From Escherichia phage vB_EcoM_G4498, in sequence record NC_054918.1: 64,000 nt of DNA; one strand, 5' to 3'. How positions within the stretch are numbered: the first letter of the stretch is position 1; every line of letters starts with the position of its first letter. Positions 5,636 through 6,834 of this stretch are shown here, in pieces. Below the pieces are notes generated by a model. That model was not told the origin of the DNA, did not search any database, and saw only the letters and a program-made list of their open reading frames with translations. Both the position numbers and the translations under genes were made by a program.

Positions 5636-5986
5636 TTAATATTCTTTTAAAGCATCAATCTGTTCACGGCGTTTACGCCATAAATCAATTGCTTCATACG
5701 CGGATTCAGCATTTCGAATTAGCCGGCATTTATGTAAAGACTTATGATTTTGATATTGCGTAAATAACGAAATTTTATCTAAAAGGTCTTTACGATCAAA
5801 ATATTCGTAACCATCTAAACCAAATGAACGATTTTTGAGAAATTGCCAATGACCATATTCGTTTTCGACATAAACATAATCTGCATGCTGATAAAGTAAA
5901 TTAATTACACGTTCAGAAATAACAGTATCGTTATGATTAAAATAGAATGTTAAATCATGAACTACTAAATAGACATTACCTTTCAT
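5636..5986 (-). CDS. Hypothetical protein, about 116 aa
   Basis: track start at 6034 would overlap tRNA-Arg; internal ATG at 5984-5986 has GAGGAAAAT RBS. Confidence 0.5.
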   Translation of the reverse strand: MKGNVYLVVHDLTFYFNHNDTVISERVINLLYQHADYVYVENEYGHWQFLKNRSFGLDGYEYFDRKDLLDKISLFTQYQNHKSLHKCRLIRNAESAYEAIDLWRKRREQIDALKEY

Positions 5987-6004
5987 ATTTTCCTCACTTA
6001 TAAT

Positions 6005-6081
6005 TGGTCGAGACAGAAGGATTCTAACCTTCAACCTACGGATTAGAAGTCCGTTGCTCTATACAATTGAGCTATGCCTCG
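6005..6081 (-). tRNA. tRNA-Arg (anticodon TCT)
   Basis: cloverleaf by hand; anticodon stem-loop ACGGA-CTTCTAA-TCCGT; encoded CCA. Confidence 0.85.
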
Positions 6082-6085
6082 TATT

Positions 6086-6160
6086 TGGCGGACGTGATAG
6101 GATTCGAACCTATAACCAATCGCTTAACAGGCGATCGCTCTGCCATTGAGCTACACATCC
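6086..6160 (-). tRNA. tRNA-Asn (anticodon GTT)
   Basis: anticodon arm ATCGC-CTGTTAA-GCGAT; T-loop GGTTCGAATCC; encoded CCA. Confidence 0.8.
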
Positions 6161-6164
6161 AAAT

Positions 6165-6251
6165 TGGTGGGGAGCGATGGAGTCGAACCACCCGAGTCGC
6201 AATGACAATGGATTTACAGTCCACACCGCTACCTCTACGGGATAACTCCCC
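6165..6251 (-). tRNA. tRNA-Tyr (anticodon GTA), long variable arm
   Basis: 87 nt; anticodon arm GTGGA-CTGTAAA-TCCAT; acceptor GGGGAGT/GCTCCCC; encoded CCA. Confidence 0.8.
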
Positions 6252-6260
6252 TAATTAATT

Positions 6261-6335
6261 TGGTGGCCCTGGGTGGAATTGAACCACCATCTGGCGATTA
6301 TGAGTCGCTTGCTTGAACCTTCCAGCTACAGGGCC
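6261..6335 (-). tRNA. tRNA with CAT anticodon (Met or lysidine-modified Ile)
   Basis: anticodon loop CTCATAA; acceptor GGCCCTG/CAGGGCC; encoded CCA. Confidence 0.8.
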
Positions 6336-6336
6336 T

Positions 6337-6412
6337 TGGTGCTGATTGACGGAATCGAACCGCCGACCTTCTCATTACAAGTGAGTTGCTCTACCTACTG
6401 AGCTAAATCAGC
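6337..6412 (-). tRNA. tRNA-Thr (anticodon TGT)
   Basis: anticodon loop CTTGTAA; T-loop GGTTCGATTCC; encoded CCA. Confidence 0.85.
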
Positions 6413-6417
6413 AAAAC

Positions 6418-6507
6418 TGGCGGAGGCGATAGGATTTGAACCTATGAGTCGCCGGAGCGACTGCCGGTTTTCAAGACCGGTGCATTAAACCACTCTGCCA
6501 CGCCTCC
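6418..6507 (-). tRNA. tRNA-Ser (anticodon TGA), long variable arm
   Basis: 90 nt; anticodon arm CCGGT-CTTGAAA-ACCGG; encoded CCA. Confidence 0.85.
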
Positions 6508-6509
6508 AG

Positions 6510-6583
6510 TCTCCGTGACAGGATTTGAACCTACGACATTCTGCTCCCAAAGCAGACGCTCTACCAAACTGAGCTACACGGAG
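6510..6583 (-). tRNA. tRNA-Pro (anticodon TGG), CCA not encoded
   Basis: anticodon arm TCTGC-TTTGGGA-GCAGA; abuts tRNA-Ser as in the T4 Pro-Ser dimeric precursor. Confidence 0.85.
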
Positions 6584-6593
6584 TAAATTAAAT

Positions 6594-6668
6594 TGGAGCG
6601 GATAATGAGAATCGAACTCACATCATCAGATTGGAAGTCTGAGGTAATACCATTATACGATATCCGCA
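6594..6668 (-). tRNA. tRNA-Gly (anticodon TCC)
   Basis: anticodon arm TCAGA-CTTCCAA-TCTGA; encoded CCA. Confidence 0.85.
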
Positions 6669-6672
6669 AATT

Positions 6673-6759
6673 TGGTGCGAGAAGTGGGACTCGAACCCAC
6701 AAGGAAATCATTCCGCAGCATTTTAAGTGCTGTGCCTTTACCAATTTGACCATTCTCGC
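6673..6759 (-). tRNA. tRNA-Leu (anticodon TAA), long variable arm
   Basis: 87 nt; anticodon arm CAGCA-CTTAAAA-TGCTG; encoded CCA. Confidence 0.85.
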
Positions 6760-6760
6760 G

Positions 6761-6834
6761 CTGGGAATAAAGGACTCGAACCTTTGCATCCTGGAATCAA
6801 AATCCAGTGCCTTACCAACTTGGCTAATTCCCAA
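6761..6834 (-). tRNA. tRNA-Gln (anticodon TTG), CCA not encoded
   Basis: anticodon loop TTTTGAT; acceptor TGGGAAT/ATTCCCA; 1 nt from tRNA-Leu (dimeric precursor arrangement). Confidence 0.85.

Follow-up and report, generated by a model that had tools for sequence, protein, structure and literature searches.

The 64,000-nucleotide stretch of DNA that we analyzed (the window) comes from Escherichia phage vB_EcoM_G4498 (NC_054918.1) and carries a compact cluster of transfer RNA (tRNA) genes. ARAGORN found exactly ten such genes in the whole window; all of them lie on the minus strand, from position 6005 to position 6833, and each was drawn as a cloverleaf. In the direction of transcription the order is Gln(TTG), Leu(TAA), Gly(TCC), Pro(TGG), Ser(TGA), Thr(TGT), a tRNA with a CAT anticodon, Tyr(GTA), Asn(GTT), and Arg(TCT). 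Nine of the ten also matched the Rfam tRNA model (RF00005), scoring 59–74 bits against a gathering score of 29. The terminal CCA is encoded in eight of the genes, the exceptions being Gln and Pro, and three pairs are tightly packed: by the ARAGORN coordinates, Gln abuts Leu with no intervening nucleotide, and a single nucleotide separates Pro from Ser and Thr from the CAT tRNA, with one nucleotide lying past the discriminator base of Gln and two past that of Pro. We conclude that this cluster is very probably the tRNA region of a T-even (Tequatrovirus) phage in the form that lacks segB and is typified by T2L and RB14, supplying tRNAs for codons that the phage overuses. The arrangement is already known, from RB14 in GenBank, from T2L in a 2008 paper, and from hundreds of T4-like phages. 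An earlier, sequence-only reading of the window had listed the same ten genes with the same anticodons in the same order, had noted that Gln and Pro have no encoded CCA, had seen that Gln adjoins Leu and Pro adjoins Ser, and had correctly given the T4 set as Gln, Leu, Gly, Pro, Ser, Thr, Ile, and Arg, without Tyr or Asn; all of this agreed with the ARAGORN calls and the T4 record. Its left boundary needed correcting, as position 5986 is the start codon of a neighboring open reading frame (ORF) and not part of a tRNA gene.

Table 1. Features of the tRNA region, in the direction of transcription.
Feature	Coordinates	Strand	Source	Rfam score (bits)	CCA encoded	Identity to T4 counterpart	Remarks
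tRNA-Gln(TTG)	6760..6833	-	ARAGORN	67.4	no	65/74	one C past the discriminator base
tRNA-Leu(TAA)	6673..6759	-	ARAGORN	59.3	yes	87/87 (identical)	
tRNA-Gly(TCC)	6594..6667	-	ARAGORN	65.8	yes	74/74 (identical)	
tRNA-Pro(TGG)	6509..6583	-	ARAGORN	67.9	no	65/76	
tRNA-Ser(TGA)	6418..6507	-	ARAGORN	62.6	yes	body identical, CCA added	
tRNA-Thr(TGT)	6337..6412	-	ARAGORN	72.9	yes	73/76	
CAT-anticodon tRNA, most likely tRNA-Ile2	6261..6335	-	ARAGORN (label Met)		yes	47/77 (vs T4 Ile)	T2/RB14 allele
tRNA-Tyr(GTA)	6165..6251	-	ARAGORN	sub-threshold	yes	absent from T4	long variable arm
tRNA-Asn(GTT)	6086..6160	-	ARAGORN	74.1	yes	absent from T4	highest Rfam score of the ten
27-bp sequence GGTTCGAATCCTATCACGTCCGCCAAA	6084..6110	-	rules from the text of PMC2330249				fits the preferred SegB site
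tRNA-Arg(TCT)	6005..6081	-	ARAGORN	71.1	yes	44/82	third allele
116-amino-acid ORF (phrog_3355)	5636..5986	-					between Arg and rnaD, in the variable cassette
rnaD homologue (T4 species 2 stable RNA)	5524..5636	-	blastn vs T4				
rnaC homologue (T4 species 1 stable RNA)	5379..5517	-	blastn			97.8%	
Terminator-like hairpin	5305..5328	-	consensus scan				10 pairs, then a T-rich tail

The corresponding region of T4 (NC_000866) reads Gln, Leu, Gly, Pro, Ser, Thr, Ile, segB (which encodes a homing endonuclease), Arg, rnaD, rnaC. The window is syntenic with it, sharing the genomic position, the single strand, trna.2–trna.4 upstream, the proximal six genes, rnaD and rnaC downstream, and the close spacing of Gln–Leu, Pro–Ser, and Thr–CAT. 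At 86–100% identity, the six proximal genes (Gln, Leu, Gly, Pro, Ser, and Thr) are, judging from their sequences, orthologous to those of T4. The two regions differ in the distal part, where blastn homology with T4 stops at 5636 and resumes only at 6316, within the first 20 nucleotides (the 5′ end) of the CAT tRNA, and a blastn match to segB was found nowhere in the window. Because homology breaks in this way and segB is absent, we regard 5637–6315 as an alternative cassette and not as an insertion. It holds the 116-amino-acid ORF, Arg, Asn, Tyr, and most of the CAT tRNA, with Tyr and Asn occupying the position of segB in T4. Where T4 has Ile-segB-Arg, the window has Ile2-Tyr-Asn-Arg-ORF, and its CAT and Arg genes are, on sequence comparison, non-orthologous alleles of T4 Ile and Arg. 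The two phages also differ at the 3′ ends of their tRNA genes: Ser, Ile, Gln, and Pro lack CCA in T4, whereas only Gln and Pro lack it in the window. The description of the cluster as an expanded T4 set in the T4 order, which the sequence-only reading had offered, is thus misleading, because the distal block is an alternative cassette with different CAT and Arg alleles; moreover, the arrangement is commoner than that of T4, and relatives with an eleventh gene would make the window, if anything, a reduced form.

We compared codon use in the phage (19,583 codons from 73 long ORFs of the window, picked by length) with that of the host (14,748 codons from only 42 annotated E. coli K-12 genes). The five highest phage-to-host ratios belonged to AGA (9.4), ATA (5.8), TCA (4.2), GGA (4.1), and ACA (3.8), for each of which the cluster has a tRNA, and the next cognate codons were TTA (3.0), CCA (1.9), and CAA (1.6). 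The eight A-ending cognate codons outranked all others (Mann-Whitney p = 2e-6), as did the full set of twelve cognate codons (p = 3e-5). Per 1000 codons, the eight A-ending cognate codons numbered 176 on the plus strand (the late-gene strand, with the baseplate and head genes), 141 on the minus strand, and 54 in the host. The demand for Tyr and Asn was raised as well: Tyr was the most enriched of all amino acids (1.64) and Asn the third (1.54), AAT had the largest absolute excess of any codon, and Tyr and Asn were the two most enriched of the seven NNY two-codon boxes read by G34 tRNAs. Two amino acids did not follow the pattern, as Lys is enriched 1.58-fold yet has no tRNA in the cluster, and His is the most depleted (0.50) yet has a tRNA gene in many relatives. 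With these two exceptions the codon counts fit a supply-and-demand explanation, and the earlier suggestion that the added tRNAs compensate for codon usage is supported by the enrichment, relative to the host, of both the cognate codons and the demand for Tyr and Asn.

The alternative that survives best holds that Tyr and Asn (and the tRNA-His of relatives) are kept mainly as anti-defense genes, serving as replacements or decoys for host tRNAs destroyed by nucleases. Phage T6 carries a tRNA-Tyr at the corresponding place that is 84/87 (97%) identical to that of the window, with no difference in the variable arm or in the local sequence at the site cut by the Septu defense system. Septu EcB88 cuts tRNA-Tyr in the variable arm, at C48/A49; extra T6 tRNA-Tyr, whether overexpressed or amplified, rescues T6, deletion of the tRNA-rich region sensitizes it, and T4, lacking a tRNA-Tyr, is unable to escape (PMC13096335). 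Codon demand, in addition, cannot explain the His gene of the relatives. The GUN anticodon that Tyr, Asn, and His share puts them in the class of tRNA that colicin E5 cuts, which also counts in favor of this explanation.

Other evidence argues against making defense the main reason. Since the variable arm of the window's Tyr is that of T6 and the GTCAT at its cut site is that of the host, this tRNA should itself be cleavable and would help by dosage, not by resistance. The T6 tRNA-Tyr is indeed cut by Septu, and rescue required extra dosage driven by segB, with escape mutants carrying SegB-driven tandem amplifications of tRNA-Tyr together with segB (PMC13096335); because the window lacks segB, amplification in cis by this route would not be open to its phage. 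Mutation of the anticodon loop has been proposed as a signature of evading anticodon nucleases (PMC10264068, a paper that also discusses colicin E5), and because the loops of Tyr (CTGTAAA) and Asn (CTGTTAA) are identical to those of the host, that signature is missing from both. Our literature search returned no reported defense system that specifically targets tRNA-Asn. (The idea that PARIS targets tRNA-Asn was dropped after we found no mention of it in PMC11464382.) Finally, Tyr and Asn are exactly what amino-acid demand predicts, and the two explanations are compatible. We therefore consider defense rather unlikely as the main reason for keeping these genes; by analogy with T6 it is a plausible secondary benefit of Tyr, and for Asn such a role is unsupported. 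The sequence-only reading had proposed that the added tRNAs counter host anticodon nucleases, and this held up in part: a defense role has been published for the near-identical T6 tRNA-Tyr, but the cut falls in the variable arm and the anticodon loops bear no sign of evasion.

Codon supply remains our preferred explanation for the content of the cluster, which also contains a candidate SegB site. The preferred SegB site is 27 bp long, with GGTTCRANTCC in its 5′ part and CCAR at its 3′ end, and it differs from the site in the Ser gene at five positions, G6, A16, G18, A26, and A27 (PMC2330249). The sequence GGTTCGAATCCTATCACGTCCGCCAAA in the window's Asn gene agrees with every one of these published details when compared with the window's Ser gene, and Asn as a whole, site included, is identical (75/75) to tRNA-Asn of T2. 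In crosses between T4 and T2L, T4 SegB drives the replacement of the corresponding T2L block of ~1250 bp (PMC2330249). Given a putative SegB target inside Asn and no segB in the window, we infer that the window would be a recipient allele for segB homing, which a segB-bearing phage could convert in a mixed infection. The motif GGTTCRANTCC, a consensus of the T-arm as well as of the SegB site, occurs only once in the window outside the tRNA and rnaC region, at 31934–31944 on the minus strand.

Many Tequatrovirus phages, such as vB_EcoM_G4507 and Ptacy1496, have eleven tRNA genes; they share the order and the ORF of the window at ~95% identity and differ by a tRNA-His(GTG) and a 114-nucleotide spacer between Asn and Arg. 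Asn and His both end in CCAA, and the edges of this indel lie directly past it. The neighboring Arg gene has the T-loop TTAGAAT, with an A at position 56 that breaks the SegB consensus GGTTCRANTCC, and a D-loop, AATTGTATA, without GG, so that a U19–A56 pair may stand in place of the near-universal G19–C56 tertiary pair. One could assemble these features into a bolder proposal, in which the GUN block Tyr-Asn-His is a modular anti-defense cassette, with Tyr the target of Septu and retron-Eco7, and Asn and His the targets of a colicin E5-like or unknown system; its modules would be gained and lost at SegB-type breaks past CCAA, the window would be a recent derivative without His, and the A56 allele of Arg would resist cutting by the endonuclease. 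We think it unlikely that this whole scheme is right.

Somewhat less probable still is that the cluster is a T4-type set of eight genes that recently gained Tyr and Asn by insertion. The isotypes shared with T4 in the same order and the 86–100% identity of the six proximal genes would fit such an insertion, but the flanking CAT (47/77) and Arg (44/82) genes are also unlike those of T4, so that the whole block differs and not merely the two genes. It is T4, moreover, that bears a mobile endonuclease gene here; the endonuclease prefers the Asn gene as its target, and T4 overwrites the T2L block in crosses. The T6 cluster points the same way. Its order is Gln, Leu, Gly, a Pro/Thr chimera, a T4-type CAT tRNA (Ile), Tyr, segB, and a T4-type Arg; it differs from the window by a segB module in place of Asn, Arg, and the ORF, and this module begins exactly at the window's Asn start, straight after the CCAATTT of Tyr. 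We found no remnants of Asn beside segB in T6 or in T4. In the phage collection, at a coverage of at least 80%, the Tyr and Asn pair was present in 392 records, the His module in 335 (many of them Klebsiella phages), and T4-type segB in 126; the Tyr-Asn form is thus ~3 times commoner than segB, and T4 represents the minority state. The T6 chimera, annotated as tRNA-Thr (2648–2722 of the T6 locus), joins the first ~15 nucleotides of tRNA-Pro to a tRNA-Thr body, which leaves an acceptor stem unable to pair; it resembles what a recombination between Pro and Thr would leave behind after the loss of the 3′ part of Pro, the whole of Ser, and the 5′ end of Thr.

The 2 kb around the cluster matched 1039 phage records, nearly all of them T4-like phages of enterobacteria. 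The window belongs to a Tequatrovirus, and the closest record is that of Shigella phage Shfl2 (97.4% over the 2 kb). RB14 (FJ839692) has the identical set of ten genes in the identical order between trna.2 and the rnaD/rnaC region, with CAT and Asn sequences identical to those of the window and a Tyr that is two bases apart; it differs in having no 116-amino-acid ORF after Arg, a T2-type Arg allele, and a T4-type Pro allele. T2 and T2L (AP018813; PMC2330249) share CAT, Tyr, Asn (identical), Arg, the 116-amino-acid ORF, and the lack of segB, but an ORF replaces tRNA-Thr in T2, leaving nine tRNAs, and its Gln and Pro are of T4 type and its Arg is a different allele. The 2008 sequencing of the corresponding regions of T2L, RB1, and RB3 had likewise found tRNA-Met(CAT), Tyr, Asn, and Arg together with two ORFs (PMC2330249).

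Allele by allele, the comparison among these relatives shows a region that is clearly recombinogenic. Gln is of the RB14/G4507 type, from which T4, T2, and T6 differ in the anticodon stem. Pro is of the Shfl2 type with one further transition (C65 to T), unlike T4, RB14, and T2, and 211 of the 217 records that match it are 95–99% identical. CAT, Tyr, and Asn are of the T2/RB14 type, while Arg is a third allele, unlike both T4 and T2/RB14, which is common to 310Ecol104PP, Shfl2, and JS09 and recurs in 137 phage records at 99% identity or higher. Both stem substitutions specific to the window preserve pairing, Pro C65 to T changing a G-C pair to G.U and Tyr A66 to G giving U.G; together with the conservation of Arg in 137 records, this preservation was counted as a sign of selection on structure. 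The CCA of tRNA-Ser (6418–6420) also varies, being encoded in the window, RB14, T2, and G4507, absent in T4, and removed from Shfl2 by a 6-nucleotide deletion.

Related tRNA genes occur farther afield. The Vequintavirus slur12, which belongs to an unrelated family, has a cluster (1419–2232 of its locus) with Arg-TCT, Tyr, Ser-TGA, Thr-TGT, CAT, and Pro-TGG, a nearly equal choice of isoacceptors, and its Tyr and CAT genes are ~95% identical to those of the window, an indication that coliphage families share tRNA genes with one another. Two records labeled as Campylobacter phages, C15 and A147 (MG065654 and MG065644; 135–143 kb), match Tyr and CAT at ~95% as Vequintavirus coliphages do, and their host labels look doubtful.

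The gene with the CAT anticodon deserves separate treatment, as ARAGORN labels it Met on the anticodon alone. The lysidine synthetase TilS recognizes C4–G69 and C5–G68 in tRNA-Ile2, with U4–A69 and A5–U68 of tRNA-Met acting as negative determinants, and the tRNA-Met acetylase TmcA requires C27–G43 (PMC2500205). The window's tRNA has C4–G69 and C5–G68, and its positions 27 and 43 form A.C, so that C27–G43 is lacking. In alignments its identity was 77% with E. coli ileX, 60% with metT/metU, and 65% with T4 Ile, and it has the entire anticodon stem-loop in common with ileX. ATA is 5.8-fold enriched in the phage, while ATG is depleted (0.78), and the RB14 record annotates the gene as tRNA-Ile. On the strength of the TilS determinants, the likeness to ileX, and the enrichment of ATA, the gene is most likely a tRNA-Ile2, predicted to carry lysidine and to read AUA. 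That it is instead an elongator tRNA-Met is what its anticodon implies by software default, what most GenBank records say, and what the 2008 T2L paper calls it (PMC2330249); the two pairs that replace the Met determinants, the missing TmcA pair, the ileX-like sequence with its whole anticodon stem-loop, the codon ratios, and the choice of the RB14 annotators all go against it, and we regard that identity as quite improbable.

Both of the tRNAs that T4 lacks appear to be genuine genes. Asn has the best tRNA score of the cluster, and Tyr folds as a cloverleaf in ARAGORN, with the one match reported for it by Rfam being to the tRNA-Sec model of the same clan, at 32.7 bits against a threshold of 47, in a search that hides overlapping matches within a clan. 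We aligned eleven Tyr homologues, taken from Tequatrovirus, Mosigvirus, Vequintavirus, Certrevirus, Karamvirus, and T5-like phages and including E. coli tyrT. On the ARAGORN cloverleaf 92.4% of the alignment cells paired, as compared with 44–59% when the partners were slid, and seven pairs changed on both sides, as compared with 2.6 in shuffles, none of 500 of which reached seven. A C.C mismatch in the D-stem is conserved across the family. That Tyr, Asn, or both are decaying pseudogenes or functionless passengers of recombination is very improbable: the sub-threshold Rfam score, the D-stem mismatch, the failure of ARAGORN to find the Tyr homologues in the Certrevirus and Karamvirus loci, the marking of the T5-like copy as a pseudogene in its record, and the recombinogenic nature of the region speak for it, but they are outweighed by the score of Asn, the compensatory changes and pairing of Tyr, the retention of the pair in hundreds of genomes at 95% identity or more, and the expression and rescue activity of the T6 tRNA-Tyr (PMC13096335).

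Downstream of Arg, the 116-amino-acid ORF matched only a PHROGs family of unknown function (phrog_3355), and sequence searches gave no Pfam, NCBIfam, or credible PDB match. It is found in T2, Shfl2, and 310Ecol104PP and is absent from T4 and RB14; further T4-like phages, among them APCEc01 and LF82-7, have it at ~84% identity. The ORF lies within the transcription unit of the tRNAs and stable RNAs, and it accompanies the Arg gene. The 3′ domain of rnaC is tRNA-like, with a canonical T-arm, GGTTCAAATCC, at 5391–5401 and an acceptor-like stem, and the relative G4507 carries an annotation of a 94-nucleotide tRNA-Lys(ttt) within rnaC. The enrichment of Lys, for which the cluster has no tRNA, raised the possibility of a hidden tRNA-Lys there; we rejected it, as ARAGORN called nothing with default settings, and with introns allowed or the threshold lowered its calls were inconsistent and had poor D and anticodon stems. 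The hairpin beyond rnaC is the probable end of the transcription unit, judging from its sequence; the consensus scan found terminator-like sites in the region in numbers not above chance.

These elements suggest how the cluster would work. It would be transcribed from upstream promoters as one or a few long precursors, through the ORF, rnaD, and rnaC to the hairpin at 5305–5328. Host RNase P and 3′ nucleases would release the tRNAs from these precursors, the host CCA-adding enzyme would complete Gln and Pro, and host TilS would convert C34 of the CAT tRNA to lysidine, allowing it to read AUA. The processing and CCA-addition steps, like the dimeric precursors of T4, are familiar from classical work on that phage. 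The mature tRNAs would then enlarge the host pool for CAA, UUA, GGA, CCA, UCA, ACA, AUA, and AGA, codons much more frequent in this AT-rich phage than in E. coli, raising decoding capacity especially for late genes, and the cluster would also cover Tyr and Asn, the amino acids whose overall use rises most. When host Septu or retron-Eco7 cleaves tRNA-Tyr, the phage copy would replenish the pool, a likely secondary benefit.

Several points weigh against this account. The phage codons came from ORFs picked by length and the host codons from 42 genes, Lys and His depart from the expected pattern, and a scan for promoters found none that was convincing directly upstream of Gln, with promoter-like hits not above chance. 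Tyr has its sub-threshold Rfam score and its conserved D-stem mismatch, and the tRNA-Tyr of T6 is reported to be relatively unstable (PMC13096335). The expression, processing, charging, and modification of the cluster tRNAs are, in addition, all inferred. Even so, we consider it very probable that the cluster is a segB-less T-even tRNA region that serves codon supply.

As an ordinary feature of T4-like phages, the cluster has small value as a discovery, and what the analysis adds is four smaller points. Amino-acid demand predicts Tyr and Asn as the next tRNAs to be carried, but not the His of relatives. The common label of tRNA-Met for the CAT gene is probably wrong and should be Ile2. T4 is the minority, endonuclease-bearing state and does not represent the baseline. 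Finally, the combination of a SegB target and a Septu-relevant tRNA-Tyr with the lack of segB predicts how such a phage would behave in mixed infections and on hosts that carry Septu.

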